Below the pieces are notes generated by a model. The model saw nothing but the letters and a program-made list of their open reading frames with translations, had not been told where the DNA came from and made no database searches. DNA of 62,045 nt, taken from a virus. Taxonomy: Duplodnaviria; Caudoviricetes. This document shows, in pieces, positions 2,666 through 53,391 of the stretch. The stretch covers positions 1-62,045 of the IMG/VR virus record IMGVR_UViG_3300021432_000009, one strand, 5' to 3'. Made by a program: the position numbers and the translations under genes. How positions within the stretch are numbered: position 1 is the stretch's first letter; the number at the start of each line of letters is the position of its first letter.

Positions 2666-2857
2666 ATGTGGGGTATGTCAGTTATGCACTGGGTCGTCGT
2701 CGCTGGTGTCGTCGCAGTGCTATTCGGCCGAAACAGGGTCAGCAGTGTTATGAAGGACCTGGGTGGCGGCATTCGCGAGTTCAAGAAGGGCATGTCCGAG
2801 GCGCTCGATGCCCCACGCATCGAGGACAAGCGAGAGGAGCGCGAAAGCGATGTTTGA
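2666..2857 (+). CDS. tatA: Twin-arginine translocase TatA/TatE family subunit
   Basis: MWGMSVMHWVVVAGVVAVLFG-RNRVSSVMKDLGGGIREFKKGM: short TM helix, FG hinge, amphipathic helix with FKKG; GGGGAG RBS. Confidence 0.9.
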   Translation: MWGMSVMHWVVVAGVVAVLFGRNRVSSVMKDLGGGIREFKKGMSEALDAPRIEDKREERESDV

Positions 2858-3458
2858 CACAACTCGCCGCAAGTTCCTAGTCGGCTCCCTCGCGTCGCTC
2901 TTCGCCGCACCGGCCATCGTGCGCGCTTCGTCGCTCAACCTCGCCGGCCTGCGCGGCGTGCGGTTTGACACGAGCGGCATAACCTACGACCAGAGCGACT
3001 CGCTCGCCTACGAGTACTGGGCCATCGGCCCCATGGGCCTCGCGAAGTACACGGCAAAACAGATAATGGACGCGCCGAAGGGCGTCTACCTGCCCTGGCT
3101 GCCTTCGGAACGCATGATCCACAGTTATGAGGATAAGCTGGTAGGGGGGCCTAATAGCTTCTTTCGCCCAGTGCGCGAGAACAAGTCCGGCCTAATGTTC
3201 GCACAGGATCAGAAGACAGCTGAACTCAAACTGCTAAATATCGCCGACTCCCTCGACCGCGACCCTGTAGTCGCAAAGCTTCGAAGCGAGCAAGACGACT
3301 TGCTTCGCAAGCTTCGCGATATGCCGCGCAACGAGGCGGAGAAGACGTTCGATCCCAACAACCACGAGGATCGAATGCGCGTCGTACGAGCGTCGCGAAG
3401 AATGCGAGAGCTAGCGTGGCGCAAGGAAGATGCGCAGAATGGCGAGCCTAGCGCATGA
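2850..3458 (+). CDS. Protein with twin-arginine signal peptide
   Basis: GAGGAG RBS, ATG 2850 overlapping the tatA stop; MFDTTRRKFLVGSLASLFAAPAIVRA-SSL. Confidence 0.8.
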   Translation: MFDTTRRKFLVGSLASLFAAPAIVRASSLNLAGLRGVRFDTSGITYDQSDSLAYEYWAIGPMGLAKYTAKQIMDAPKGVYLPWLPSERMIHSYEDKLVGGPNSFFRPVRENKSGLMFAQDQKTAELKLLNIADSLDRDPVVAKLRSEQDDLLRKLRDMPRNEAEKTFDPNNHEDRMRVVRASRRMRELAWRKEDAQNGEPSA

Positions 3459-9239: not shown

Positions 9240-9306
9240 CTTTAAGGATCATTGGGACGACATAGCAGGCTACGCGAAGCTGGTATCCGACCGATGCACG
9301 TCGTAG
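9004..9306 (+). CDS. DUF6378-like protein
   Basis: RGTTHGDF...MILHKISR..G...DHWDDIAGYA; start uncertain. Confidence 0.75.
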   Translation: MQSDSGLTKPMPSASSSTSELLAQRGTTHGDFTVNARISQRLKAVIQEEPNWPKLAAYQQEAIHMILHKISRAVAGNADFKDHWDDIAGYAKLVSDRCTS

Positions 9307-10391
9307 CGCCTCCATTCGCCCATTCGTCCGGCCCACGTACTGCGAAGCTCGCCTTCGTCGCAGAGTGTTGGGGCGAGCAAGAAGACATGGCTGGGCGCCC
9401 GCTTGTCGGCAACGCGGGCCAGGAGTTCACGCGGTTGCTGTGCGAAGCGGGGATAGACCGCAGAGAGTGCTTTCTAACTAACACCATCGCCGCAAGGCCG
9501 CCAGATAACAAGTTCGAAGCACACTTCTGTTGCAAGAAGGGCGAGCTTCCGCCCAACTACGCCCTCCCGCCACTGTCGCAGGGCAACTATCTGAAGCCGG
9601 AGTACTGCGGGGAGCTAGATCGCCTATGCGAAGAACTATGCACGGTTCGGCCAAACCTCGTCGTAGCCCTCGGCGCAAAGGCCCTATGGGCGCTAAGCGG
9701 CAGCAGTGCCACAGGAGCTATGCGGGGAACAGTAGCTACTTCACGATTCGTATTGCACCAGGGCAATGGCTCGCACAGTCTAGCTACACAGAAGATACTA
9801 GCGACGTATCATCCTAGCTATCTATTCAAAGTATGGTCACATAGGCCAATCGTCCTAGCCGACTTGATGAAAGCGAAACGCGAAGCCGCCTTCCCCGAGG
9901 TCCGCCGCCCCGAACGCACCGTGCTAGTCCGCCCGACGATCGGCGAGATCGAAGAGTTCTACGAGTTTAACCTACGAGATGCCGCCTGCATCGCCGTGGA
10001 TATTGAGACGAAGGCGGGGCAGATCAGCGATATTGGCTTCGCTCCCTCGCGCCGTAAGGCAATGGTAGTGACCTTTCTCGATCCGAAGAAGGCTGACGCG
10101 AGCTATTGGGAGTCGCCAGTACTTGAAGTCGCCGCGTGGAAGTGGGTGCAGAGGATACTCGCCTTGCCTTGCAAGAAGCTATTCCAGAACGGCGTCTTCG
10201 ATATCTCGTACTTGATGAAACAGGGACTGAGAGTAGTGAACTGCGCAGACGACACGATGCTACTTCACCACAGCTACTATCCTGAGCTGCAGAAAAGCCT
10301 TGCGTTCCTCGGGTCCATCTATACGAGCGAGCCGGCGTGGAAGCTTATGGTTAGGCACAAGAAAGAAGAGTTGTTGAAGAAAGATGAGTAG
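9294..10391 (+). CDS. Uracil-DNA glycosylase family 4-like domain plus 3'-5' exonuclease (N-terminal half of split DNA polymerase)
   Basis: AECWG.QE...PLVG.AG, TN, RPP.N, LG..A, TYHPS (UDG); DIET, QNGVFD, DDTM (Exo I/II). Confidence 0.85.
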   Translation: MHVVAPPFAHSSGPRTAKLAFVAECWGEQEDMAGRPLVGNAGQEFTRLLCEAGIDRRECFLTNTIAARPPDNKFEAHFCCKKGELPPNYALPPLSQGNYLKPEYCGELDRLCEELCTVRPNLVVALGAKALWALSGSSATGAMRGTVATSRFVLHQGNGSHSLATQKILATYHPSYLFKVWSHRPIVLADLMKAKREAAFPEVRRPERTVLVRPTIGEIEEFYEFNLRDAACIAVDIETKAGQISDIGFAPSRRKAMVVTFLDPKKADASYWESPVLEVAAWKWVQRILALPCKKLFQNGVFDISYLMKQGLRVVNCADDTMLLHHSYYPELQKSLAFLGSIYTSEPAWKLMVRHKKEELLKKDE

Positions 10392-10400
10392 GGATACGCA

Positions 10401-10607
10401 ATGGTCGATGCATACGAACGTGAACAGCAAGCGCTACACAATCAGCAAAAGCGCGAGAGATTAGAACTCGCTGAAGCTAAGGCCAAGATAGCACGTCTGC
10501 GCGCGGCGCTCAAGCCATTCGCAGAGGTCTTTCGCGGTGAGCGGCTGAATGCAGGCCCAGTTGATTGGCAACAAGCAAGTGAAGTTTACACGAATACAGT
10601 ACAATGA
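10401..10607 (+). CDS. Hypothetical coiled-coil protein
   Basis: LRAALKPFA motif; lies between the polymerase halves. Confidence 0.6.
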   Translation: MVDAYEREQQALHNQQKRERLELAEAKAKIARLRAALKPFAEVFRGERLNAGPVDWQQASEVYTNTVQ

Positions 10608-10993
10608 GCACTGAAGGCTGCCCCGCCGAATACGTATACCTCGCGTCGCCGTACTCGCACCACGACGCCGCGGTGCGTGCGCTTCGTTTCCTCGAAGCTG
10701 AGCGCTGTTCGCACTGGCTTCTTCTCCGTAGGAACTGGAATTACTCTCCGATTGTCTACTGCCACTTGATGGCCCAGAAGTTCGGCCTTCCGACTGACTT
10801 CGCCTATTGGCAGGACTTAAATCGCGCCATGCTAGTCTACAGTCGCGCGATGTACATACTGACGATTGATGGCTGGCGCAACAGCACGGGGATCGCCGGA
10901 GAGCGCGAGTTCGCGGAGGGCGAGGGGATACTAGTAAGGTATATCGAACCGTATCTCGACGCATATCAGATACTGGCGAAGCCGCCATGCTAG
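10604..10993 (+). CDS. DUF1937 / nucleoside 2-deoxyribosyltransferase-like protein
   Basis: YLASPYS, SPI..H, GW..S.G...E...A. Confidence 0.75.
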   Translation: MSTEGCPAEYVYLASPYSHHDAAVRALRFLEAERCSHWLLLRRNWNYSPIVYCHLMAQKFGLPTDFAYWQDLNRAMLVYSRAMYILTIDGWRNSTGIAGEREFAEGEGILVRYIEPYLDAYQILAKPPC

Positions 10994-12501
10994 TTCGCAC
11001 GCAAGACCTCAAGCAAGGCGAGGTGACAGAAGATAATTTGCAAATATATAACGGACTTGATTGCTGTATCACAATGGAGGTCTTCGAGGAGCTATCGACG
11101 CTCAGTAACGCCCCACCGCCTGTCTACGCCTTCTCTCGTGCCTTGCAAGCCCCGATACTCGAAATGTCCCTGCGCGGGTTTCGAATAGACGAGTATGAGA
11201 GACAAAGTAGTCTCGCCTCGCTGCGCGAGAAGCGCACAAAACTTAACTCCGCGTTACAGTTGCTCGCATACGCGGTATGGGATAAGCCACTTAACCCCAA
11301 CGTCGGCGCGCACAAGCAGCAACAGGAGTTCTTCTACCGCCACATGCGGGTACCAGAAATTTGGTCCTCTCAAAAGGGCGAACGCAAGCTTCGCATGAAC
11401 CGAGAAACGCTAGAGAAGATTGAGGTATATCTGTATGCCAGACCAATCGTTGCGTGTATCTTGGCAATTCGTGATCTCAACAAATCAATTGAATTCTTCG
11501 AAACTGAACTGGATTCTGATGGACGGTTCCGAACGAGTTACAATATCGGGGGAACTGAATCATGGCGGCTTTCATCCAGCAAATCCGCCACGGGAACTGG
11601 AGGCAATGCTCAAAATCTTAAACGAGATGATGATATTGCCAAAGGAGAGCTTAGTGTTAGGAAACCCTTCGTCGCCGACCAAGGAATGAAGCTATGCGTC
11701 TTAGATCTCGAACAGGCTGAGTCGAGGGAGGTTGGGCTGATCTTCGGAACACTTTTCAACGACTGGAGATTCCTCGACGCTTGTGAGCAAGGCGATTTAC
11801 ACACCACTACCGCGAGGCTAATATGGCCAGAGCTTGTCCACGACCGCAAATCTGCCGAGGCTCACTTCTATCGTCACTTTACATATCGCGACATGTCCAA
11901 GCGTGGCGGCCATCTCACAAGCTACATGGGCACTGCGTGGACTGCGGCGCGCAGTTTGAAGGTTCCATTGAAGCTAATGGAGATATTTCAATCAGCTTTT
12001 GCGACAGGACCAAAAGCTGCGTTTCCGAGTTTCCCAAGGTGGTGGCGATGGGTAGCACAGGAGTTGCAGACCAAGCATCAGATCACAAATTCGTTTGGCG
12101 TTACCCGGACGTTTTTTGGTCGTCCTAACGACGACACAACGCTTCGCGAAGCAATTGCGCACTCGCCTCAGAGCAGCACGGCAATGCGTACGAACCTCGC
12201 GCTGTGGCGCATTTGGCGATATCTCCCACACGTCCAATTGCTCGCACAGACACATGACAGCGTGACGTTTCAGTTTCGCGACCGCGATGACAATTACACA
12301 AAGGAAGTGCTGCGAGACGCTAGGGCGCTCATGAGCACGCCCTTGCACCTGCCAAATGGCCGCATCTTCGACGTTCCAAGCGACTGCAAAATCGGCTGGA
12401 ACTGGGGAGCCTACGATGCGAAGTACAACCCGAATGGATTGCGCAAGTGGAAGGGCAGCGACGAGCGGAAGAGGCTAGATGGAGTGGATCGCATACTATG
12501 A
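10987..12501 (+). CDS. DNA polymerase family A (polymerase half)
   Basis: YNGLD (Exo III), TESWRLSS, DLEQAESR (motif A), RDMSKRGGHLTSY (motif B), THDS (motif C). Confidence 0.92.
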   Translation: MLVRTQDLKQGEVTEDNLQIYNGLDCCITMEVFEELSTLSNAPPPVYAFSRALQAPILEMSLRGFRIDEYERQSSLASLREKRTKLNSALQLLAYAVWDKPLNPNVGAHKQQQEFFYRHMRVPEIWSSQKGERKLRMNRETLEKIEVYLYARPIVACILAIRDLNKSIEFFETELDSDGRFRTSYNIGGTESWRLSSSKSATGTGGNAQNLKRDDDIAKGELSVRKPFVADQGMKLCVLDLEQAESREVGLIFGTLFNDWRFLDACEQGDLHTTTARLIWPELVHDRKSAEAHFYRHFTYRDMSKRGGHLTSYMGTAWTAARSLKVPLKLMEIFQSAFATGPKAAFPSFPRWWRWVAQELQTKHQITNSFGVTRTFFGRPNDDTTLREAIAHSPQSSTAMRTNLALWRIWRYLPHVQLLAQTHDSVTFQFRDRDDNYTKEVLRDARALMSTPLHLPNGRIFDVPSDCKIGWNWGAYDAKYNPNGLRKWKGSDERKRLDGVDRIL

Positions 12502-34448: not shown

Positions 34449-35681
34449 CTAGAGGAAGTCAGGCACAACGCAGGCCCATTCGGGCCGAACGTATAGGATT
34501 CCCCAAAGCACGTCAAGTCGAGTGATGAATTGGTCGCTGCGAATGTCGTATGCGCTAATCATTCGCATCGAGATGCCATCATACGACTCCCTCGCCGCTT
34601 CGTGCACGCCACGCGGCAGCTCCAGGTCCGCCGTTGCCATCGTGATGGCCTCGGGCACGAACGCGAAGTTCTTCCGATACACGGAACTCGCCAGCGTTGC
34701 AGGGATGACATTCGCCGCATTCGCCGGCGAGTTGTCCACCGTCTGGTACTGCACCGGAGTCGGCCCAGCAGCCGCAGGGATCAGCGCAGGGTAGATGTTC
34801 ATCGTCGTGCCGCCATTCGCAACGGCAGTCGTCAAGACGAACTGCATCGGAGTCTGCGTGGAGACCTTCGTGATACGGTTCACGGAGTTGACGCCGCTGA
34901 TCGTCACGATATCGCCGAGAGCGTAGGTGCCCGCCAGCGCATTAATGGTGATCTGCAACCCCGTTTGGCCAGCGCCATTCACAGTGGCAGACGTGGCCTG
35001 CGCGCTCGTATACGCACCCGTCGTATGCTTGATAACCGTTTGGTCCGAGTACCAGTCGAACCCGAGCGTATCCTCGGCGATCTGACCCTTCTTGTACTGG
35101 TCGCCGATCTTGTTCTGCGGGTTCAGTAGGCCGGCGAGGCTCGCGACGCTTCGCGCCATCGTAATGGGGTCAAGGATCAGTTTCCGGCGACCCCTTGGCG
35201 CAGAGTTAAGGTCGAGCAGCGCGCCGGCGGTGAGCCAAGTCTGCGCAATGGGCGTGAGCACGTTGCCTGCGCCATCGAAGTTGCCGGCAAGTCGGGCTAC
35301 GCCGCCCTCGACGCCGGCCATGATATTCGCGGCTACGTCGCCGCACAGGTTATTGACCATCGGGGCGAGGATACGGCGGGAGAAGTCGTCGAGCAACATG
35401 GTACGGTCGACACTGCTGTACGACACGTCCACGCCATATTGGTTGGTGAGCGTCAGCGTGGTGCTCTGCTCGCTCGTGTCCTGAATGCTCGCCGCCGGTC
35501 CGTGCCGAGTCGTGAAGTCGTTCGGCAAGCGCACCCTTACCGTCGTGCCGATCTTCGCGCCCGTCTTCGCGAACTGATCGTCGTATTGCTGGTCGATGTG
35601 CTGAATGAACTCGTTGGAGTTCTTCCAAAGCCGCACGGCCTCGCGGGTAATCATGTTGATTGTCAGGATGGTATTCGGCAT
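34449..35681 (-). CDS. Major capsid protein (P22 coat family)
   Basis: N..LTI.MITREA, YDD.F...GAKIG...R.RLP, TRLDVL.G...RPEW. Confidence 0.95.
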   Translation of the reverse strand: MPNTILTINMITREAVRLWKNSNEFIQHIDQQYDDQFAKTGAKIGTTVRVRLPNDFTTRHGPAASIQDTSEQSTTLTLTNQYGVDVSYSSVDRTMLLDDFSRRILAPMVNNLCGDVAANIMAGVEGGVARLAGNFDGAGNVLTPIAQTWLTAGALLDLNSAPRGRRKLILDPITMARSVASLAGLLNPQNKIGDQYKKGQIAEDTLGFDWYSDQTVIKHTTGAYTSAQATSATVNGAGQTGLQITINALAGTYALGDIVTISGVNSVNRITKVSTQTPMQFVLTTAVANGGTTMNIYPALIPAAAGPTPVQYQTVDNSPANAANVIPATLASSVYRKNFAFVPEAITMATADLELPRGVHEAARESYDGISMRMISAYDIRSDQFITRLDVLWGILYVRPEWACVVPDFL

Positions 35682-35833: not shown

Positions 35834-36733
35834 TTAGTGCCTCGTAGCGCGCTGGGCGCGCTCCTGTTCGTTCCGCTTCGCGATAAACTCTGTCATCGGC
35901 ATAGTCTCAAGATCTGGCTCTGCTCGAGTCGCGCCACCCACTCGGGGCGCGATCGGCTTCGGCGCGCGCGTTACCCTCGGCTCAGCCTCGCCCAGCGCAT
36001 TCTGCTGCGCACCCAGCTCGCTCGCAAGCTTCGTTAGCGCAACAGCCTGCGCGACAGCGGGCATCGAGAGTATTCGATCGGCCTCACTCGGGTTCTTGCC
36101 CAGGTGATAGATGAGCGCGCCGGCGGAGCCAGTCTCCAGCGCCGCGGCGAGAAACTCGCCCGGCACAACTGGGCCGGTTACAGTCTTCAGGCCTGCGATG
36201 GCCTCGTCGAAGTCGGGGTGTTCCTTGCGACCCGCGAAGACTACTTCGTCCATTCTCGTATTGAACTGCGCATTCGCAGCGAGCCGGCGGGCCTCGGCCT
36301 CCACCTCCGCTTGCGTGAATGTTCGTACAGCCGGCTTTGGTGGCTCAGGCTTCGCTTCGCCCTCTGCTGGCTTCGCTACGCCCAGCTTCTGTAACTCCGC
36401 AATGGTGTCCTCTGCGAGCTTCGCTCGCGCTTCCGCCGCTTCGCGCGCTCGCTTCTCTTCCCACTTCTCGCGAGTGAGCACGTTGATGCGCTCAGCGGCG
36501 CCATCCTTCTTCGGCTCGGGCTTTGGCTCGCCCGCGGGCGGCTCGCCATCCTTCGGCGCGAGCAGCGCCGCAACAGGCTTGAGTGGTTCCGCTGGCTGCT
36601 CTGGCTGCGGTGTTGGTGTCGGGCCGGGCTCGGGTGTCGGCGTAGCAACGCCGCCGGGGCCAAGAGAAGCCTCGTCGCCCTCAGCAGAGCACAGGAAGGT
36701 GTGGTCGAGAAAGTGGCGATGGCGGAAGAGCAT
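35834..36733 (-). CDS. Capsid scaffolding protein
   Basis: Pro/Glu-rich N-terminus, RI..LT, G...PDF, YHLGKNP.EA.RI, APKPI.P; upstream of coat. Confidence 0.8.
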   Translation of the reverse strand: MLFRHRHFLDHTFLCSAEGDEASLGPGGVATPTPEPGPTPTPQPEQPAEPLKPVAALLAPKDGEPPAGEPKPEPKKDGAAERINVLTREKWEEKRAREAAEARAKLAEDTIAELQKLGVAKPAEGEAKPEPPKPAVRTFTQAEVEAEARRLAANAQFNTRMDEVVFAGRKEHPDFDEAIAGLKTVTGPVVPGEFLAAALETGSAGALIYHLGKNPSEADRILSMPAVAQAVALTKLASELGAQQNALGEAEPRVTRAPKPIAPRVGGATRAEPDLETMPMTEFIAKRNEQERAQRATRH

Positions 36734-37104: not shown

Positions 37105-38717
37105 TGCGAGACCTCGTCAGGAAACGGGTTGTGCTCTACGTCTTGCACTGGGCGAAGCGAGCCATCGTGGCTCGCGGCATACGCCGCCGTTGCGCCAGCG
37201 AGCGGAATGCCAGCCTTGATATTCGCACTTGTGAACTTCGAAGGGTCGAAATCTGCCCACGGTAACCTCGCGCCGTAGACGTGGCCTGGCGAGGTGGGCG
37301 ACTCGCGAAACAGTATATAGGAGTCGTGGCCTTTGTCCTCAACCCTATTCTTGTAAACTATGCTGTCATAGCCCTTAGACTGCATATAGTTTCGCAAGTT
37401 ATTTGCTTGAGTCTTCAAACTGCTAATTCCATAAATATCCTTCATACTGGCTGTGGCCATACCAGCGTATCTTGCCTCGTCGATCTCGTCTCTCGGCAAT
37501 CCTGCCATCTCTAGTCCCTTTGCTACATTCTCTGGATACCATGTTCCCAAGTCAGGCATCCGAATTGGGTTTTGCGCAACAATTGCAGCGGGGTAGACCC
37601 GCGGAGCAGTAGACCAGTCGAGCGTACTACCTTGTATCTCCTGTGCTGCGCGAGGCGAGCCAAAATGAACGCCAATCTCACCGTCGCCCGGCAACGCAAA
37701 CTGGTCGAATATTGTCGGTGTCCTCGTCCCGTGGTGCACTGCGACGTTGTAGCCTTGCTCCTTTGCCGCCTGTGGCATTTGCCACGTCGCCCCACGCGGC
37801 AGCGCCTCGGTGTCAATCGGAATGTGCGCAGGAGGAGCAGACGGGTTCTTCACTCCTGCAAGATCGAATAGCGACATACCGGGGTTCGCGGCAAGGGCCT
37901 TGTCGATGTCCTCGTCAGCGAGACTTGGCTTCGCAGCGCCTTTGTTATAAAAACTTCCACCTTTCGCATAATTCTCTGCTGCTATCTGAGATTTATTAAC
38001 AAGAGTCGGGTCGAGATGACCCTTAACTTCATTAGCTACAATGTCAGGCAATACCATTGCATCGTTATTTAGATACTTTGCACTTCCACCATATCCCAAT
38101 ACATTTCCAATAGACGTAGTTGGCCAGTCGCTAATATGCTTAGCAAGCTGCGCAGTTGTGTAATTTTTCGACCACGGATTAACTGCAGCGAACTCTGGTG
38201 CAAGATGCTGCATTGTTACCTTAAGACCAATGGAAGCTGCTTGGTCTTCGAGTGAAGGCACCTTCTCCCACGCACTCCCCGCCTTCGGCATCTGTGCCGC
38301 TGCATCCCAGTCGCCGCCCAGCGCGTCCTTAATCGCATTCACAATAGTATCGCTGTGTTCCGCAGGAAGGCTCTTCGGCAGTGCTGAGCGAAACTCATTT
38401 GCAGCAAGCTCGGCTAGCTTCGGCGCTGCCTTCTTCGCCCCGCCGAGGGCAGCCATTGCAATACCTGCGCCCTTCCCTACGCCGACAGGGCCAACTAGTC
38501 CCAGTGCACTTTGCAGCGCAGGGCCAAGCGTGCTAGTTTGATCTATTGTACCAAGCGAAGCAAGACCCGTGCCAATATCCACTGCCGGCTGCACTGCCGC
38601 TCGCATAAGCGCATTCGCAGCTGGACCTTGCTGATAGCGCAGCAGCGCATCTGCTATCGCAGGGGTAATAGTTGTGGGTAGTGGTGAGGATAAGGGGTCC
38701 AGTTCCATGCTAGCCAA
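37101..38717 (-). CDS. Putative ejected protein with ADP-ribosyltransferase-like (ART-PolyVal-type) domain
   Basis: HHGT...F..F, GVHFG, VYP, NP, GYDSI.Y; C-terminal VEHNPF. Confidence 0.6.
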   Translation of the reverse strand: MASMELDPLSSPLPTTITPAIADALLRYQQGPAANALMRAAVQPAVDIGTGLASLGTIDQTSTLGPALQSALGLVGPVGVGKGAGIAMAALGGAKKAAPKLAELAANEFRSALPKSLPAEHSDTIVNAIKDALGGDWDAAAQMPKAGSAWEKVPSLEDQAASIGLKVTMQHLAPEFAAVNPWSKNYTTAQLAKHISDWPTTSIGNVLGYGGSAKYLNNDAMVLPDIVANEVKGHLDPTLVNKSQIAAENYAKGGSFYNKGAAKPSLADEDIDKALAANPGMSLFDLAGVKNPSAPPAHIPIDTEALPRGATWQMPQAAKEQGYNVAVHHGTRTPTIFDQFALPGDGEIGVHFGSPRAAQEIQGSTLDWSTAPRVYPAAIVAQNPIRMPDLGTWYPENVAKGLEMAGLPRDEIDEARYAGMATASMKDIYGISSLKTQANNLRNYMQSKGYDSIVYKNRVEDKGHDSYILFRESPTSPGHVYGARLPWADFDPSKFTSANIKAGIPLAGATAAYAASHDGSLRPVQDVEHNPFPDEVSQ

Positions 38718-41019
38718 CTAACGAGTACGCGCCTGGGGTCTTCGCATAGTTCTTCACATACCAGTGCCCATCTGCGCCCTTCCTCGCGCCCGGGACAGGC
38801 GGATTTTCAACTACTCCCTTCGGCAGCGCAATTGGGCCGCCCTGCCCATTCGCCTTCGGCGCAGCTACGCCAGTGGACTCGGCTTCGTCACTCGCTGCCT
38901 CATCGCCAAGGTGGGCCTCCAAGGACTCTTGCATCGTCTGGCTTACTAGCGCCTTAATCTCATCAGGCTGAATCGCCTCTGCTGCCCTCGCCTTGTCATC
39001 CAGGAACACCTTCAGCCGCTGCGTGAAGGCGTTGTAGGAGTCAATTACGTGCTTGCCGCTTCGATCGTGCCCCTTCAGCTTCTCCCTCGACAACTCCTCC
39101 ATTGTCTTCTGCAGCAGCTGGGTAATCTGCGTAACTTGACCCTGCAAAGCCTGTTCCTGCGGACTTGGACCTTGCCCGAGCGCTTGCGGCGGCACCATGC
39201 GGCGCAGCCTCGCCGCGGCCTCATCGCTTAGGTCGAAGTCGCTGCTCTTCAGCAGCAAGTCGCCAATTAGCGAGGTTAACTGCGGCGCTTGCGTCAGTAT
39301 GAGCGTTAGTGCATTGAATGCCTCCTCACGCTTCGTGCCCCAACTCGGCCCAATGTCTGCCTCGACCTCGTAGGTTCCAGTCATCGGGTTCAAGATATGA
39401 GCAGCAACGCTACCATCATGAGCTAGTCGCTTCGCATAGACTTGCGCGGCCTGCGGGTCGATCTCGAGCTCGAAGTCTGTGCCGTCCTCTGCCATAATGC
39501 GCATTATTCGCTTGGTGTCGTAAAGCTTCGGAATGAGATCGAGCAAAATCTTGCCTATATGTCGGATTGCAATAGCAAGATTATCAATAAAATGATAAGT
39601 AGCAGTGTCGCCTTGCCGCTGACGCTCGTTAATAGCCTTGGCAGATCGTTCATTGCTCCTCTCGCCCATAGAGTCTTGATACTGCCCAGAGGCCATCATA
39701 AAGTCGCCCTGAGCGAGTTGCATTCCAGTCAGTGCAACTGGCGCAGCCACGGGCGGCTCGACACGCTGCGGCGCTGGGATAGCCTCGCCGGCGTCATTCA
39801 GCCCATTATACGGTAGAACAGAGTGGTTTATCTTGTTCGCTGTTTCCCAATACGTCTCGTAGCCCTCAATGGCTTCGGCGGGAGCCATCCAGGGTGACTT
39901 CGTCTGTAAAGCACCATATTCTACGGCAGTACTGGCCCAATAGTTGTACATTCGCTGAGGGTCAATTAGCGCCCGAGTATGCCCCTTCCTGTCCATTATG
40001 CCATCGATGACTGTCTCTTCCCCAATAACTGGCACAATCGGAATGTACTTGCCCGGCCAAGTTTCCTCTTCCACAATAGTATTGCCGACGATGAAGTACC
40101 ACTCAATTGTAGTAGTAGTCGTTTCGCGCGACTTCGTCCGCGGGTCAGCCTCGATCATTCGCAATAGCTCAGGGGCGTCCTCCAGCACACTCTTTCGAAT
40201 ATACGCAGTTTGCTTGCTTTGCTTGTCCGTGTAGGCAAAGAGCGTATCTTTCTTCTGCACCCTTCGGAAGTACTCGCAGGTGCGAATGCTGTCCTGCGTT
40301 ACCCACCCCGCATCATCACTAACTACATTCTGCGCCGCGGCAATATCTTTGTACTCGGGGTACTTCCCCTCGAAGTCCTCCTTGGGCACATCCTCGAAGA
40401 TAAAGCAGCGATTCGCATCGCTTTTGTCTACCTCCTTTGCGCCGCTGTCCATCACAATGTTGAGAGGATCGGGGACGGGCATAATGTAGGGCTCTTGGTC
40501 GAAGGAGTCCTCACTAATATGCCGCGTGCCAATTCGCAAGTAGCCTACGCCGCCATTAACTTGGAATGTGCTCGCCACATCGTAGGCGACAGTGGCATTG
40601 CTGCGGTACTCGATATGCCGCATAATAGCGTTGTGCATCGAGGCGGCCTCGGCCGTCGCGCCATTCCCCGTCGCACGAATTTTGATTGCCGGCTTGTTCT
40701 TCTTCGCATCATTCACGATTTGCAAGTTGTGCTGGCGCGTTTTGTTAATCGTCAGACAGGGGCGCTCATCAACATCCCTGTTGCGCCTAATATCGTTCGG
40801 CCACTGGTAGCCGTTATACGCATCAGCGTTCGCAAACTTAATATCTTCTAAGAAGTTCTTCCGGGCGTGCGACTCCCACTTCGAGTCAATCTTGAAGTCG
40901 TCCTTCGCTTGCTTAAGAATGCGCTCGTGGCGAGTCCTCGCATCGCCAGCGTTGTCGTCGCTCTGCTCAACGTAGCTCTGCGCCCTTACGTCGGGAACTG
41001 TTGCGGAGTGCTCAGCCAT
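38710..41019 (-). CDS. Portal protein (P22-like)
   Basis: QW......R....RPCLTIN, IPIVPV.G, DPQRMYNYW.S, HFIDNL. Confidence 0.93.
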   Translation of the reverse strand: MAEHSATVPDVRAQSYVEQSDDNAGDARTRHERILKQAKDDFKIDSKWESHARKNFLEDIKFANADAYNGYQWPNDIRRNRDVDERPCLTINKTRQHNLQIVNDAKKNKPAIKIRATGNGATAEAASMHNAIMRHIEYRSNATVAYDVASTFQVNGGVGYLRIGTRHISEDSFDQEPYIMPVPDPLNIVMDSGAKEVDKSDANRCFIFEDVPKEDFEGKYPEYKDIAAAQNVVSDDAGWVTQDSIRTCEYFRRVQKKDTLFAYTDKQSKQTAYIRKSVLEDAPELLRMIEADPRTKSRETTTTTIEWYFIVGNTIVEEETWPGKYIPIVPVIGEETVIDGIMDRKGHTRALIDPQRMYNYWASTAVEYGALQTKSPWMAPAEAIEGYETYWETANKINHSVLPYNGLNDAGEAIPAPQRVEPPVAAPVALTGMQLAQGDFMMASGQYQDSMGERSNERSAKAINERQRQGDTATYHFIDNLAIAIRHIGKILLDLIPKLYDTKRIMRIMAEDGTDFELEIDPQAAQVYAKRLAHDGSVAAHILNPMTGTYEVEADIGPSWGTKREEAFNALTLILTQAPQLTSLIGDLLLKSSDFDLSDEAAARLRRMVPPQALGQGPSPQEQALQGQVTQITQLLQKTMEELSREKLKGHDRSGKHVIDSYNAFTQRLKVFLDDKARAAEAIQPDEIKALVSQTMQESLEAHLGDEAASDEAESTGVAAPKANGQGGPIALPKGVVENPPVPGARKGADGHWYVKNYAKTPGAYSLVG

Positions 41020-47184: not shown

Positions 47185-47830
47185 CCTTGGCCTCCCACTT
47201 GTCACACACGTCATCTGGCGAAATCGCCCCAGCCACCCAGGTACACGCCCGCAGCCGCGGCAGGAACATTGCGCAGTGCTCGCACGCGCGAGTCTTCCCA
47301 CTCGCCTCTCGGTAGTCCACTTCGTCCTTCTCGAACTTGCTCTTCGCGGCGACCTTCTCCAAGTGTGCGAGCAACTTCGCATCGCCCTCGTAGGGATATA
47401 GGTCGAGATCTGGCGGCACTCGACGGATATCCTCATGCTCAATTGGCATGAAGTCTGGCTCTAGGCCCTTCTCGTACTTCTCCCAGTCGTAGCCGTCGCC
47501 AAGCACTGCGAATTGCTCCGCAGCAGTAGCTAGATGATGGGCAGGCTCATAGCTCTGCTCTGCTTCATGCACTAGCGCCGCCTCGACGCTCTCGTGCACT
47601 TCGATATACTTCGCCAGCGGGACGCCTTCGCTCTTCTCCGGCAGATGGCGGTCGAGGTACACATACGCGCCGTCGCGGGAGATTCCACCCAAGTATGGCA
47701 CGTCGAATGTGTTGCAAAGCTTGCGCCACTTGCGCAGCCGCCGGCCGACGGCCGGATAGCGAATTAGTAGGGCACGTAAGCGCGCGAGCGAGCCCGGTGC
47801 GTCGTCGAATTTACTATCACCTGCGCTCAC
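47177..47830 (-). CDS. HE-motif protein with C-terminal HiPIP-like 4-Cys domain
   Basis: PYLGG.S.DG..Y.DR, HE.VE, AH..A; Y....C..C..F....C..V.G.ISP...C..W. Confidence 0.65.
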   Translation of the reverse strand: MSAGDSKFDDAPGSLARLRALLIRYPAVGRRLRKWRKLCNTFDVPYLGGISRDGAYVYLDRHLPEKSEGVPLAKYIEVHESVEAALVHEAEQSYEPAHHLATAAEQFAVLGDGYDWEKYEKGLEPDFMPIEHEDIRRVPPDLDLYPYEGDAKLLAHLEKVAAKSKFEKDEVDYREASGKTRACEHCAMFLPRLRACTWVAGAISPDDVCDKWEAKGE

Positions 47831-48189
47831 GCGATTATCCTGCCAGGCTCAAGTCCTGCGTATTCTGGCCACGATACTACTGCGTCTATACAAGCCTGCA
47901 CACCAGGGACTGGTCGAATACTGTCAATAGTTTCTCTCGAAATAAACTTGTGAACCTGTTTAGCTGTAAGTGTAATAATACCAGATCGAGAGTCGTATTG
48001 ATGCAATGGAAACTGAGCACGGTCTACTCGAATTAACATTTGGTCAGTATTGATTTGGTATACAGCCAGATACCGCGTGTAGTATGGGTCAAAGTTGCGA
48101 ACTGGCATTAAACTACTCGTACGCACAATGGCTGGCGCAGCCAGGCTGCTAGCAAGACCAACTAGAAGACTTCTGCGAGCAATAAGCAT
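47827..48189 (-). CDS. Twin-arginine signal protein with weak similarity to coat C-terminal strands
   Basis: MLIARRSLLVGLASSLAAPAIVRTSSLMPV; RYLAVYQINTDQMLIRVD. Confidence 0.7.
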   Translation of the reverse strand: MLIARRSLLVGLASSLAAPAIVRTSSLMPVRNFDPYYTRYLAVYQINTDQMLIRVDRAQFPLHQYDSRSGIITLTAKQVHKFISRETIDSIRPVPGVQACIDAVVSWPEYAGLEPGRIIA

Positions 48190-48225
48190 CGTGTAACCTG
48201 ACTGTCCGCTTCGCGGACGACTATG

Positions 48226-48396
48226 CTACGCAGCTTGCTCGCGTTCAATTGCCTTCTTTGCATCGAGCAGAGCCTTCTGGCGAATTGCTACGGCGAGTGC
48301 CTCGATACCCGCTCCGCGAATGCCTCGGTTACGCTGTGCGATATGGAATGCGCGAAGCTCGGCGCATTCGTCAATCATTCGATTAAGCTCTGCCAT
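48226..48396 (-). CDS. 56-aa hypothetical protein
   Basis: Translated by hand; fills the gap between neighbours. Confidence 0.4.
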   Translation of the reverse strand: MAELNRMIDECAELRAFHIAQRNRGIRGAGIEALAVAIRQKALLDAKKAIEREQAA

Positions 48397-48410
48397 CTAG
48401 TATCTCGCGG

Positions 48411-48644
48411 CTAGGCCGTCATATTCGGCAGTGCGATCTTCGGAGCATTTGCTCGCACGCTGTCGCGTTTCGCTCGCTCGGCGCACATGCGGTCGATCCA
48501 GGCGAGGATAGTCTCAGCATTCGTAAGTAGCAAGTCGACACCACCGTTACCGAGTGGAATACCGTGTGTACTGCATAGCTGCGGAAGTCTGCTGGCGCAC
48601 TCTAGTGCTAGCGAAACCGTGGCGCGGTCGGAGACGGCGGTCAT
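48411..48644 (-). CDS. Hypothetical protein
   Basis: Coupled ORF. Confidence 0.55.
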   Translation of the reverse strand: MTAVSDRATVSLALECASRLPQLCSTHGIPLGNGGVDLLLTNAETILAWIDRMCAERAKRDSVRANAPKIALPNMTA

Positions 48645-48880
48645 TCGGCAGCCTCGCGAGCAGTGTTCTTCTCGTGCTCATACACGATCTTCTCATTCTC
48701 AATTCGTTTTAAGTACTCAGCATCGCTTTCAGTGTTCAAGATCATCTTCTTAACTTCGCTGCGAAATACAGCAAGTCGGTTAAGCGCCTTAATTTCCTCG
48801 TCGTATCGAGCCTGAGTCAGCTCAATCATCGTGTCACTTTGCAGATCGTAGGCCATAATAACTTTGCGCTTCGTTGTCAC
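48641..48880 (-). CDS. Hypothetical protein
   Basis: Coupled ORF. Confidence 0.55.
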   Translation of the reverse strand: MTTKRKVIMAYDLQSDTMIELTQARYDEEIKALNRLAVFRSEVKKMILNTESDAEYLKRIENEKIVYEHEKNTAREAAE

Positions 48881-49518
48881 TTTGGCGGCTCCAGTTGTGG
48901 GGTGGCAGTTACGTCGATCAGCGGGGCTTCGTCAGCTTGCGGCGACACGAAGCTCACGTTTACCGTAACGCCGCCGCCAGAGGTGCCCTGCTGCCCTCGT
49001 GCCGCGCCCTTGCTAGGTGCCACCGACCTGTCGAAGGCCATGGCGGCGACCTCAAGCAGTTCGCGATTCTTGAAGTCCTCGGGGGAGTCTTCTAGCCGCT
49101 CCTGTAGCACCTCGACTGCCGTGGCGCCGACTACTGCGAGGCGTCCTGTGGCGTCGAGGAACTGCGCTTGCGCCTCAGCAGCATAGTGCGCGACTAGTTC
49201 GCGGAACGCTGGGTCTTGCGTTTGCAAGCGATATATCGTCGTAATCGCGTGGCCAGTTATGCTTGCGATCTCGGCTGGCTTCTTCCCACTTGCGACGAGG
49301 CGGGCGAGCAGGTGGTGGGAGTAACGGAGACGCTGGACGGACGACTTCGCCGCGCCCACGGGGACGTTGCGCAGAATGTCGATGTCCTCCGCCGTGAGGT
49401 CGCGGACGTAGGAGAAGACGAGCGGCTCGGCGCGCTCCCGGCGGCCCTCGGAGAGGGCTAGAAGGGCGATATCGTCGAGCAATTCGACTGAGGCGGTCAT
49501 GCTGCTGCACTCGGCCAC
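48877..49518 (-). CDS. HTH protein, candidate terminase small subunit
   Basis: H..LARL.A.G....EIA..TG.....I..L..DPAF; C-terminal VNVSF. Confidence 0.55.
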   Translation of the reverse strand: MAECSSMTASVELLDDIALLALSEGRRERAEPLVFSYVRDLTAEDIDILRNVPVGAAKSSVQRLRYSHHLLARLVASGKKPAEIASITGHAITTIYRLQTQDPAFRELVAHYAAEAQAQFLDATGRLAVVGATAVEVLQERLEDSPEDFKNRELLEVAAMAFDRSVAPSKGAARGQQGTSGGGVTVNVSFVSPQADEAPLIDVTATPQLEPPK

Positions 49519-49877
49519 TGTTGGCCTTCGTAGTAGGCCAAGTCGAATGCTGCGTCTTGTCGTGCCATGATAGACTTCGCAACAGACTCAGCAAACTTGT
49601 CCTGCATAGGCTTAATGATACGAGCAGAGTACTCATCGAGTACTAACTCAGGTGGCAGTTCTAATGCTGTCCACTCAGGACGAACTTGCATCGAGCCAAA
49701 CAGGACGTGTAAGCGAGTAATTGACTCGTCGGCTCCAACGTCGTACACAGCAATCTTGCGAAGTGAGATGCCATCGGAGATGGCCTTGACTGGCATAAGC
49801 GACGAGGCGCGAACGATAGCCGGGGCAGCGATGAAGAGCGCTCCTAGACCAGTTATAAAGCTGCGCCGGCTAGTCAT
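49497..49877 (-). CDS. Twin-arginine signal fused to permuted major-capsid fragments
   Basis: MTSRRSFITGLGALFIAAPAIVRA; matches coat residues 368-402 (21/35 identical) then 95-122 (12/28), aligned by hand. Confidence 0.85.
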   Translation of the reverse strand: MTSRRSFITGLGALFIAAPAIVRASSLMPVKAISDGISLRKIAVYDVGADESITRLHVLFGSMQVRPEWTALELPPELVLDEYSARIIKPMQDKFAESVAKSIMARQDAAFDLAYYEGQQWPSAAA

Positions 49878-50260
49878 GCGAAGCTCGCTGTCTGCCGAAT
49901 TGTGAAGTCGCCAGGAAGTCGGATTCGAATAGTACTGCCAATTTTTACACCGGCTTTATTAAACTCGTCGTCGTATTGCGAAATAAACTTGTGTGAGTTC
50001 ACAAATAGCTTAACTGCCTCGCGAGTGATCTCGTTAACTGACAGCAGGCTACCGGTAATTTGGTACGTTGCTGCTTCTTCAAACCATTCAGCCTCCGCGC
50101 CAAGCAGAGGATACATGAAAACTGGTTCTTCTTGGACTGTACTGAGCGCCTTAACTGGCATTAAGCTACTCGCACGCACGATAGCCGGGGCGGCGAACGC
50201 GAATGCGCCGAGGCCAGCGAGAAAGCCGCGGCGAGAGGGGATGAGTAGTTGGTCTGCCAT
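49874..50260 (-). CDS. Twin-arginine signal fused to major-capsid N-terminal fragment
   Basis: SRRGFLAGLGAFAFAAPAIVRA; matches coat residues 4-59 (32/52 identical), aligned by hand. Confidence 0.88.
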   Translation of the reverse strand: MADQLLIPSRRGFLAGLGAFAFAAPAIVRASSLMPVKALSTVQEEPVFMYPLLGAEAEWFEEAATYQITGSLLSVNEITREAVKLFVNSHKFISQYDDEFNKAGVKIGSTIRIRLPGDFTIRQTASFA

Positions 50261-50317
50261 GTGGCGTGTTCCGTGTAACCCGACCGCCCCCCTTGGGGGC
50301 GACTAGCAATGCGTACC

Positions 50318-50779
50318 CTAGAACTTCTTGAGGACTTGCATCTGCAAGATCGCCTGCTTGCCGAACGGACCCTCGCCGGTCGAGACTTGCACGATGAAGC
50401 CCTGCGAGACGGCCTCGTCGAGTATAGCGAGGATTGGCACATAAGCTTCGGCGATGCGAGACTTCAAGTCGGCGGCGATAGCAACGTCAGTTCGGACGGT
50501 GCGCAGGGGGCCATTCTCGCTGCGCGGAAAGTCTGCTACACCGTCAACTATTGCTCTATCCATTCCCCACAACACGCTGCTACGCATGTCCCTGCTGTAT
50601 GACGAGGTTGTTGCACTGCTCAGCGATTGGCTGCGGCGTCGATGCGTCGCAGAGCGCGGCGTCTTCGAGCGTCTGGCAGATCGTGCTTGCGAGGCGAAGC
50701 CGGCCGCAGGCGAGGCAACGGCGACGAGGACGTTCGGCGAAAGGTCGCGAAGAAGTGGGAGGGGTTCAGCGGTGCTCAT
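50318..50779 (-). CDS. Hypothetical protein (start uncertain, possibly 50563)
   Basis: C-terminal ~80 aa look protein-like. Confidence 0.45.
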   Translation of the reverse strand: MSTAEPLPLLRDLSPNVLVAVASPAAGFASQARSARRSKTPRSATHRRRSQSLSSATTSSYSRDMRSSVLWGMDRAIVDGVADFPRSENGPLRTVRTDVAIAADLKSRIAEAYVPILAILDEAVSQGFIVQVSTGEGPFGKQAILQMQVLKKF

Positions 50780-51153
50780 GCTCCGCTCATGCCTTTGCCC
50801 TGCAAGCCGGCGCGGCGGACAGCAGCGCCAAGCTCAGCTGCTGTTGGCCCCTCGCCCTCTTCGTGCGGTTGGTTCCAAGGCGGGTTTGTTCGACTACTAC
50901 CAGCAGATAAACCAGCACTGCCAGCTTCGGGTGGCTTATTGAGCCGGTCTAGCTCGCGTTGGAGTTGCCAGATAACGTCTGGCCCACACACTGCGCTGCT
51001 GTGCGAGACCTGTGCGCGCAGCATTGCGCCGAGCAGGTCCATTGTCTCGACCTTGGCGCTGAGCAATTCGTTTCGGCGACGAAGATGTTCGATTTCGAAC
51101 TTGGCGCTCAAGAGCGCGTCTTTAAGTGGGGTCATCTGAGATGGCTCGGACAT
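50776..51153 (-). CDS. Hypothetical protein
   Basis: GGAG RBS; EI..LRR.NE.L.AK. Confidence 0.6.
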   Translation of the reverse strand: MSEPSQMTPLKDALLSAKFEIEHLRRRNELLSAKVETMDLLGAMLRAQVSHSSAVCGPDVIWQLQRELDRLNKPPEAGSAGLSAGSSRTNPPWNQPHEEGEGPTAAELGAAVRRAGLQGKGMSGA

Positions 51154-52267: not shown

Positions 52268-52296
52268 ACTATAGCACGCAGCGGGACGGTTGTCAA
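52268..52296 (-). promoter_or_regulatory. Sigma70 promoter
   Basis: TTGACA-17-TATAGT, TG extended. Confidence 0.8.
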
Positions 52297-52311
52297 GGGT
52301 TATTCGTCTGC

Positions 52312-52667
52312 GTTGTCGCGACTTGTTGCGTTATGTCGGACGGCGTAGTCGGTCTCCTATGTTGTTTGAACCTACCGTGTGTCGCATGGGTGGGTCGGCT
52401 GGCCGTAGGCCACCAATGTAATTACACACGTGGGCCGTAGGGCGCATCCTGCCTCGCACTGCTTATGGGCCACGAGGTGGGACCCCTTGCCTCAGATTGT
52501 GGCTTTTCTGTGTCTTTCTGATGATATTTTTTTTATAGACAGACTCAGACACACGAGCACGCCACGTGGCCTACACGAACACGGGCCACGCGACAGAGGC
52601 ACGGTAGGTCGAAACAACAACGGTGTCCGACTACGCGGGCAGACGTAACGCAACAATCAGGCACAAC
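52312..52667. repeat. Long imperfect inverted repeat around a T-tract (candidate origin or packaging region)
   Basis: ~100-bp arms 52312-52413 and 52566-52667, plus an inner hairpin 52499-52565. Confidence 0.75.
52407..52436. repeat. Dispersed dyad repeat copy D
   Basis: AGGCCAC-CAA-TGTAATTACA-CAC-GTGGGCC. Confidence 0.8.
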
Positions 52668-52714
52668 CGTGCCCGACTATCGCATTCGCTTCCACAATCG
52701 CACGCTACGCGAAA

Positions 52715-52960
52715 CTATTTCACGCTAACGACCTTGCCGTCCTTCACAACCGCTTTCGCGTACCAGCTATGTGCTGCCGGACAGTGCGGGCCTTCGAGGT
52801 ATATTGTGCCGTCCTTCGGCTCATTGCCACCAAACGGGCCAGGCTGATGGTACGTCACCGCGCGACCTGCGCGCTCGCCATCTATTCCCTTCAATGTGTT
52901 GTAGGCTTCGACGGCAGCCTTGAGTTCCTTCTTTGTCTTAAAGTTGCGGTCTGTATACAT
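52715..52960 (-). CDS. Hypothetical protein
   Basis: GGGGAG RBS; NFKTKKELK...EGPH.P..H.WYA. Confidence 0.75.
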   Translation of the reverse strand: MYTDRNFKTKKELKAAVEAYNTLKGIDGERAGRAVTYHQPGPFGGNEPKDGTIYLEGPHCPAAHSWYAKAVVKDGKVVSVK

Positions 52961-52987
52961 CGCTATCTCCCCTTGTTTCGATGGCAC

Positions 52988-53016
52988 AACATAGCACAAC
53001 TAACTCGTTGTGTCAA
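52988..53016 (-). promoter_or_regulatory. Sigma70 promoter
   Basis: TTGACA-17-TATGTT, TG extended; CACAAC/GTTGTG dyad overlapping the spacer. Confidence 0.7.
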
Positions 53017-53019
53017 CCC

Positions 53020-53245
53020 CTATTCGTCGCCTTCGACTCCATCGGGTTGAAAGCCCGCGTACCGATCGCTCAGCCTCGCCCACGGATGGCATGCCGCAAC
53101 AGCGCACACAGACCCGAAGTGCACTACCTCGCCACTATCCACGTGCTCGAGCACAACCGTATGTGACAACTCTGTGTTGCCACAACAATCGCAACAGAGC
53201 ACCTCGTCGCTCGTGCCGAGCCGAATGAATAATGGTTGCATCATG
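53020..53245 (-). CDS. Zn-binding hypothetical protein
   Basis: AGGAG RBS; CDCCG...L..TV......FG..CA. Confidence 0.6.
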
Positions 53246-53362
53246 CGCTCCTGATCGTTGCCGTTGGCTCGTCGAGCCACTAAATTGCCACGCTGTCCCG
53301 CACGTCGTCGTGCGACATTGGTAGAGATATTCTTGCATCGTTATCTCCCATTTGTTATCGCG

Positions 53363-53391
53363 AGTATAGCGCACAAACGCGTGTTTGTCAA
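53363..53391 (-). promoter_or_regulatory. Sigma70 promoter (leftward of a divergent pair)
   Basis: TTGACA-17-TATACT. Confidence 0.8.

Follow-up and report, generated by a model that had tools for sequence, protein, structure and literature searches.

In this study, we analysed the virus record IMGVR_UViG_3300021432_000009 from IMG/VR, a whole phage record of 62,045 bases (CheckV completeness 100%) that is referred to here, at its full length, as the window. The window phage encodes its own coat protein, portal (38710-41019) and large terminase, as well as a DNA polymerase, a primase and a helicase. We focused on P0002, a small gene on the minus strand, and found that its product consists of a leader of the twin-arginine translocation (Tat) type followed by two segments of the phage's own P22-type coat protein in swapped order (Table 1). 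P0002 is a real, selected small phage gene that carries a circularly permuted P-domain excerpt of this coat.

Table 1. Features of the window and of P0002, with positions on the 62,045-base record
Feature	Position	Strand	Length	Description
P0002, gene studied	49497..49877 (including stop)	-	126 aa	Leader plus permuted coat excerpt
Leader of P0002 (residues 1-31)	49785..49877	-		Twin-arginine-type (SRR.F..GL, hydrophobic stretch, AAPAIVRASSLMPVK)
Hairpin segment of P0002 (residues 35-72)	49662..49775	-		Copy of the last coat beta-hairpin and the start of the C-terminal tail (coat 368-405)
Helix segment of P0002 (residues 78-105)	49563..49646	-		Copy of the coat spine helix (coat 95-122)
P0003, upstream neighbour	49874..50260	-		Same leader, then coat N-arm through first strand (coat 4-60)
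Downstream ORF	48877..49500	-	207 aa	Counted from the ATG at 49500; no family found
P0004, third leader protein	47827..48189	-		Faint hairpin-like match to coat 365-390, E 0.003
P22-type coat (major head) protein	34449..35681	-	410 aa	Parent of the excerpts; PF11651 (P22_CoatProtein) E 2.9e-31, phrog_283 E 2.1e-61
Probable scaffolding protein	35834..36733	-		Just upstream of coat; weak PF09306 match, E 0.0011, 18.8 bits, below the cut-off of 25
TatA/E-like gene	2666..2857	+	63 aa	PF02416 E 2.5e-9, 36.7 bits against a cut-off of 21
P0043, fourth leader protein	2850..3458	+	202 aa	170-aa cargo unrelated to coat

The two segments of P0002 were compared with the window coat by BLASTP. The hairpin segment is identical to coat 368-405 at 21/38 residues (E 4e-12; positions 358-398 of the coat hidden Markov model, HMM), and the helix segment is identical to coat 95-122 at 12/28 residues (E 4e-5; HMM positions 95-128). 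A six-frame search of the whole 62-kb record returned the same two places in the coat gene, with E-values of 1.9e-10 and 0.012. The first-pass annotation of this DNA had described coat segments in reversed order behind a Tat-type leader in the open reading frame (ORF) at 49497-49877; this arrangement is real, and the hand counts given for it (21/35 and 12/28) are correct. It had also stated that P0002 and its upstream neighbour cover non-overlapping parts of the coat, which we confirmed: P0003 corresponds to coat 4-60 (32/57 identical, E 1e-20, BLASTP) and P0002 to coat 368-405 plus 95-122. P0002 thus holds about 70 of the 410 coat residues with their order swapped, and is not a full HK97-fold chain. 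Its match to the PF11651 profile was sub-threshold (E 0.048, 12.9 bits against a cut-off of 24) and covered only profile positions 372-421.

Between the two segments lies the stretch TALELPP, which had been taken at first pass for a linker and a counterpart of coat TADLELPR (350-357). We found that the homologues P0044 and P0053 read TAIVPEFP/TAIVPDFP here and align with the coat end ACVVPDFL, which speaks against this assignment. Therefore, the first segment seems to reach the C-terminus of the coat and to be joined directly to about coat residue 95. Going by these alignments, TALELPP is probably the continuation of the coat's own C-terminal tail and not a copy of coat 350-357.

To place the segments in a known coat, we aligned the coat family with P22 gp5 (from BK000583) at 17% identity, a level at which residue equivalences are good to about one position. 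In this alignment, coat 95-122 falls on gp5 ~94-121, coat 368-398 on gp5 ~385-416, and the RPEW tail on gp5 417-430. The domain boundaries listed for gp5 in PMC9965877 are 2-30 for the N-arm and 128-221, 346-357 and 417-430 for the A-domain. By the gp5 alignment both segments belong to the P-domain and represent the helix and the final strands of this single domain, as had been supposed. The sections of PMC9965877 on scaffold binding report that the C-terminal helices of the P22 scaffold contact D14/E15/E18 of the coat N-arm and R101 of the spine helix. The near-invariant R86 of P0002 and its homologues corresponds in the alignment to coat R103, which falls about one position or less away from gp5 R101/R102. 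The closest solved relative of the window coat is the CUS-3 coat (8SKG; also 6MNT), found by a phmmer search of the PDB that did not reach P22 itself.

Furthermore, we searched the mature part of P0002 (96 aa) against 1.84 billion representative proteins at E<=0.001 and obtained 23 matches, one of them P0002 itself. 13 of the 22 non-self matches are proteins of 121-160 aa in which the same leader is followed by the hairpin and then the helix, with 36-49% identity to the query. Conserved segment order among homologues, which the first-pass annotation had named as a check, is therefore found: hairpin, then helix, is kept in all 13. Four further matches (4/22) are full-length coats, each aligned in two stretches, and three (3/22) are short C-terminal coat pieces without a leader. 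One match (1/22), the 89-aa protein P0061, has the coat hairpin after another leader, which contains RR but not the AAPAIVR block, so the cargo is not tied to one leader. The last one (1/22), the repeat protein P0057, looks spurious. Other members of the permuted subfamily are P0005 (59% identical), P0006/P0007, L001 and L189, and the homologue P0049 matches the same two segments of the window coat with E-values of 5e-12 and 1e-7. Those homologues for which DNA sequence was at hand are diverged (33-40% identity).

We also examined which residues are kept. The positions conserved in the family (RLDVLYG..VRPEW, R86 and P90) correspond to coat R388, D390, L392, G394, R399, P400, E401, R103 and P107, and the same coat positions are at least 90% conserved in full-length coats. 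Judged from these alignments, the combination of leader, C-terminal hairpin and spine helix in about 120-160 aa is a conserved subfamily, which points to selection for a particular pair of coat elements and not for any leftover piece. A search for longer homologues at E<=0.001 found no fused long form of P0002, which is weak evidence. The cargo of P0003, searched for homologues, returned only P0003 itself. A tblastn search of P0002 against cultured phages (INPHARED) gave no leader protein with such a cargo; the single record matched was the coat gene of a Pseudomonas phage.

The leader is shared by four ORFs of the window (P0002, P0003, P0004 and P0043). In P0002 it reads SRRSFITG, with the RR pair in an S-R-R-x-F context, and continues into a hydrophobic stretch and small-residue APA or VRA sites. 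Across 29 aligned leader proteins, R4, R5, G10, P19, V22 and R23 are invariant, and A17, A18, A20, I21, S26, M28, P29 and V30 are nearly so. In the block AAPAIVRASSLMPV, P0002 and P0003 agree at 14/14 residues, yet 8/14 codons differ; hence selection acts on the leader peptide, which does not stem from a fresh duplication. The near-invariance extends over about 28 residues across hundreds of phages and includes SSLMPVK past the expected cleavage site. Such conservation would also fit an uncleaved anchor. Among the feature neighbours in a protein atlas are Tat-signal clusters at 0.82-0.86, which serve as a lead only. Two other readings of the leader were dropped: that of a leader of a ribosomally synthesized and post-translationally modified peptide (conserved leader, variable core), as the cargos are traceable copies of head proteins, and that of a lipoprotein signal, as the leader is without Cys. 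The Tat pathway, unlike the general secretory (Sec) pathway, moves folded complexes. That the leader appears to be of Tat rather than Sec type, and that the phage also has a tatA gene, points to a role for folding or complex formation ahead of transport.

P0002 lies in a leftward block of leader genes. The TGA of P0003 overlaps the ATG of P0002 (ATGA), and the TGA of P0002 overlaps the ATG of the downstream ORF in the same way; because of these stop-start overlaps, P0003, P0002 and the 207-aa ORF are translationally chained. At the other end of the window, the start of P0043 overlaps the 3' end of the TatA/E-like gene. The neighbours of P0002 had no match in PHROGs or Pfam, and 0/10 proteins of the gene block matched PADLOC models at E<=0.01; the surroundings contain no known anti-defence family. 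Upstream of the block, at 52268-53391 (-), a cluster of three sigma-70-like promoter sites comes near the consensus (11/12, 10/12 and 11/12; consensus matches only), and a site scan of the minus strand between this cluster and the head genes found no terminator-like site. In the head module, the ORF at 35834-36733 is the probable scaffold gene by its position and its sub-threshold Pfam match. Ten ORFs of the replication arms were scanned; they gave DNA polymerase, primase and helicase matches and no integrase. Here, the ORFs at 9252-10391 (+) and 10987-12501 (+) match consecutive parts of a DNA polymerase profile (phrog_17 479-807 and 805-1239), and a 203-aa ORF on the opposite strand at 10461-11072 spans the gap between them. 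This pair may be a split polymerase or contain an inserted element.

The window phage recurs in soil. DNA identical to 47800-50800 was found in a run that is probably the source sample, and parts of it occur in three more soil runs, each from a further study; two of these three contain small pieces. In the third, a soil metatranscriptome run, six contigs at >=99% identity cover 29/30 bins of 47800-50800, and one of the six, of 382 nt, bridges the P0003/P0002 junction; RNA libraries can contain DNA, so transcription is not thereby proven.

We found that the leader is common to a large class of small phage proteins, in which, as far as the alignments reach, the traceable cargos derive from the major head protein of the phage itself and less often from its portal. 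The leader pattern gave 139 matches in viral contigs, of which 102 were confirmed, and at least 598 matches in metagenome contigs, at least 387 of them confirmed. Genome contigs of 185,579 species gave 70 pattern matches, and the 14 that were confirmed come mostly from alphaproteobacterial metagenome-assembled genomes, plus one isolate, Bradyrhizobium erythrophlei. In three alphaproteobacterial genomes (L088, L089 and L090, the last being Bradyrhizobium erythrophlei GAS478), the leader protein has a conserved cargo (GPQYAGF..RL...) with no similarity to coat by eye. The isolate GAS478 could be a culturable entry point.

The origin of the cargos was traced within genomes. Each cargo was compared with the large ORFs of its own genome (E<1e-3) in 29 whole or near-whole records, namely 28 records plus the window. 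Own-genome matches were obtained for 12/35 ORFs carrying the leader pattern; 3/35 look spurious, and the control with reversed cargos gave one match, on a spurious ORF. Eight of the 12 parents are PHROG major head proteins (phrog_283, 212, 1357, 9953 and 371, the last weak at E 1.6e-5). Two come from a family of about 350 aa that hhalign ties to the phrog_9953 group (99.7% probability, E 2.6e-26), which brings the head total to 10, and two are portal-type (phrog_156 and phrog_332). When 151 distinct leader proteins were pooled, 25/148 cargos of at least 25 aa matched a large ORF at E<1e-4, compared with 0 for reversed controls; new targets in this census were a phrog_334 head protein, a tail protein (phrog_376) and another leader protein. 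In P0016, the cargo corresponds to the C-terminal end of a GP7-type capsid protein (sub-threshold PF20911 match).

Within the P22-like coat group, the cargo pieces, as placed by the coat HMM, are N-arm, spine helix or C-terminal strands. When the HMM was run against all ORFs of the loci, leader-bearing fragments were found only at positions 2-62, 83-128 or 356-398. Beyond contig-end artefacts there was just one leaderless small coat fragment, an I-domain piece of 91 aa (L258:9083-9355, +; HMM 246-323) with a gene for leader plus N-arm ~600 bp downstream of it. Leader gene and parent head gene share a strand in 10/11 records, and the leader gene is the upstream one in 9/11. In one case (L017/G009:13756-14238, +), a gene for leader plus N-arm is part of the head module and is separated by 66 bp from the coat gene that follows. 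No family for this design exists in Pfam, NCBIfam, PHROGs or PADLOC, and full-text literature searches found no paper describing a leader joined to a coat excerpt.

The first-pass annotation had further suggested that P0002 and P0003 might form a two-chain mimic of the capsid. A two-chain mimic with the neighbour cannot be the general design of the class, because 46/50 related viral records, searched whole, have a single leader match and 4/50 have two, compared with four in the window. Of the same 50 records, two are proviruses and five have terminal repeats. A complex prediction for P0003 (38-128) with P0002 (31-126) scored 0.01 against a mark of 0.32, which gives no verdict and is not evidence either way.

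What, then, would P0002 do? The cargos of the class appear to be those parts of head proteins that are buried or engaged in the built shell (N-arm, spine helix and edge strands in the P22-like group). We read them as mimics because they keep coat-invariant residues and do not apparently fold alone. The P0002 excerpt, seemingly not self-folding, would mimic coat surfaces that are free only in unassembled subunits, and would act by binding the usual reader of such a surface. The leader, for its part, would bring the excerpt to the Tat machinery and the inner membrane, to be taken across or held there as an uncleaved anchor. That P0002 works as such a leader-directed mimic, binding a reader of the coat surface, is our leading proposal, which we hold tentatively and with somewhat less than even confidence. 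Two more specific forms of it can be given. The excerpt may be an envelope-side bait for the head-docking (ejection or internal) proteins of a superinfecting relative, for exclusion or sensing, which taken by itself is rather unlikely; or it may act at the membrane on scaffold or coat of the phage itself, which we rate slightly lower. For the class as a whole, phages of soil Alphaproteobacteria would repeatedly have built excerpts of head or portal surfaces behind a shared Tat-type leader and would thereby use the sole export route open to folded complexes, either as envelope bait that shows the capsid's inner face to proteins ejected by superinfecting relatives or as binders of a cytoplasmic reader of unassembled coat (host sensor or scaffold) that is dragged to or through the Tat pore, a reading we consider rather unlikely. 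Our order of preference, as we infer it, runs from envelope bait through modulation of the phage's scaffold or coat by a membrane-tethered excerpt, an immune decoy and a competitor poison to debris.

Several observations weigh against a leader-directed mimic. To our knowledge, parts of the coat do not meet anything in the periplasm. The leader of P0002 scored 12.7 bits with TIGR01409 (cut-off 16.7), and PF10518 matched 7/29 leader proteins, all below its cut-off, with a best score of 18.7 bits against 22.7 (E 0.0017). The hydrophobic stretch averages about 2.2 on the Kyte-Doolittle scale (hand count, no tool), which is high for a Tat signal and also fits a plain membrane anchor. Homologues of tatA were absent from the flanks of 80 related viral loci and from 28 other whole records (0/28); being found only in the window phage, the gene cannot be a general requirement. 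Most cargos are untraced and may have other origins, since only 25/148 could be assigned a source. Fold prediction gave no support for an independent domain either. AlphaFold2 reached a mean predicted local distance difference test (pLDDT) score of 60.5 for P0002 with an 18-row alignment and of 58.8 for the longer homologue P0049 with 19 rows; in each, only the helix was confident (82-104 and 70-79, respectively) and the hairpin stayed unfolded. Because both alignments are shallow, this is weak evidence either way, and it leaves the autonomous mini P-domain imagined at first pass unsupported, not refuted.

The same data were weighed against other explanations. The excerpt might modulate the phage's own head assembly by binding scaffold or free coat subunits on the cytoplasmic side of the inner membrane, while the leader sits at the Tat receptor or in the membrane and export is not completed; it would thereby tether, time or buffer procapsid assembly. 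All of the traced parents (12/12; 10 head, 2 portal-type) are procapsid parts, the positions conserved in the family are those conserved in coats, and the excerpted N-arm and spine helix are the scaffold-docking elements that PMC9965877 describes for P22. The leader gene also precedes the head gene on the same strand in 9/11 records, and lies 66 bp before coat in G009. An N-terminal RR leader, however, should put the cargo outside the cytoplasm, and the phage tatA suggests real translocation. The genes are also accessory, with only a coat-gene match among the INPHARED cultured phages, and the promoter-like sites at 52268-53391 (-), consensus matches only, hint at early rather than late expression. 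On balance, we regard assembly modulation as unlikely. An immune decoy seems less likely again. Here, the excerpt would imitate a part of newly made coat that is sensed by host abortive infection and would soak up the sensor, possibly exporting it as a Tat 'hitchhiker' complex. Head and portal proteins, from which the cargos derive, commonly set off defences that sense capsid or portal (Lit/Gol, CapRel, Avs). Accessory genes that occur once per genome in 46/50 records, with diverse cargos behind a constant leader, resemble the products of an arms race, and the movement of folded complexes by Tat and not by Sec is textbook knowledge. A mimic of a trigger should nevertheless activate the sensor and not block it; terminase, the classic Avs trigger, accounts for 0/25 traced cargos, and the surroundings of P0002 gave no PADLOC match and no known anti-defence family.

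Two further explanations are much weaker. It is very unlikely that the fragments serve as a poison that co-assembles with the coats of related co-infecting phages and blocks their heads. They do keep motifs of the coat subunit interfaces, and with 54% for the L052 coat and 49% for the L017 coat they resemble the coats of other phages about as much as their own (55%). The own coat, as the best match, would however be poisoned too, and a poison acting in the cytoplasm would hardly need an export leader. With 2/50 related records being proviruses and no integrase in the ten scanned replication-arm ORFs, standing protection of a lysogen is therefore also unlikely. That P0002 is debris, a non-functional product of coat-gene duplication or recombination read behind a mobile leader cassette, is hardly credible. 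The cargos are short and highly varied, and the P0049 junction lies at a 'DF' shared by both coat segments, a microhomology of the kind used by illegitimate recombination. Debris would not be expected to leave 13 diverged representatives with open frame and segment order retained at 36-49% identity, conserved positions that coincide with coat-invariant ones, the same leader residues written in different codons, ATGA gene coupling, and identical DNA in three other soil runs from three further studies.

If the proposed leader-directed mimicry is true, a virus exports or anchors small mimics of its own shell, which would be a new viral use of self-mimicry. The parents of the class come from no fewer than six major-head PHROG families and from two of portal type; a design invented or re-used so many times argues for a strong selective benefit. 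The target would point to superinfection exclusion, capsid-sensing immunity or control of head assembly, and an excerpt of the P0002 type would offer a natural minimal coat epitope for structural work.

We compared P0002 with known systems. From the P-domain of P22-type coats (PF11651; P22 gp5; CUS-3 8SKG) it copies the last hairpin with its tail and the spine helix and keeps the invariant residues; unlike these coats, it is without N-arm, E-loop, A-domain and I-domain, its order is swapped and an export-type leader is added. With Tat signal peptides (PF10518, TIGR01409) its leader shares S-R-R-x-F, a hydrophobic stretch with Gly/Ala/Pro and a basic residue before small-residue sites. In contrast to ordinary Tat signals, P0002-type leaders are near-invariant over about 28 residues and score below the profile cut-offs, and their export is predicted only. 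Uncleaved Rieske-type signal anchors are one type of Tat signal.

SieA of P22, an inner-membrane phage protein that stops relatives via their ejection proteins according to the account in PMC10883804, may be taken as an earlier example of a phage protein that resides in the envelope and has proteins from inside the virion as its targets. As described there, SieA is not made of capsid pieces and is expressed from a prophage, whereas the window phage has no sign of lysogeny in the scanned ORFs. The closest published systems found, as far as their descriptions go, are the capsid-redirecting proteins of satellites, CpmB of SaPI1 (PMC5644958) and Ccm of SaPIbov5 (PMC8569155), small proteins or coat homologues that compete at coat-scaffold or coat-coat interfaces. 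In these descriptions both are encoded by satellites that parasitise a helper and have no export leader, Ccm being a whole coat homologue and CpmB scaffold-like. P0002, in contrast, belongs to a complete phage, where it is encoded beside that phage's own coat, portal and terminase and is built as an excerpt of the coat.

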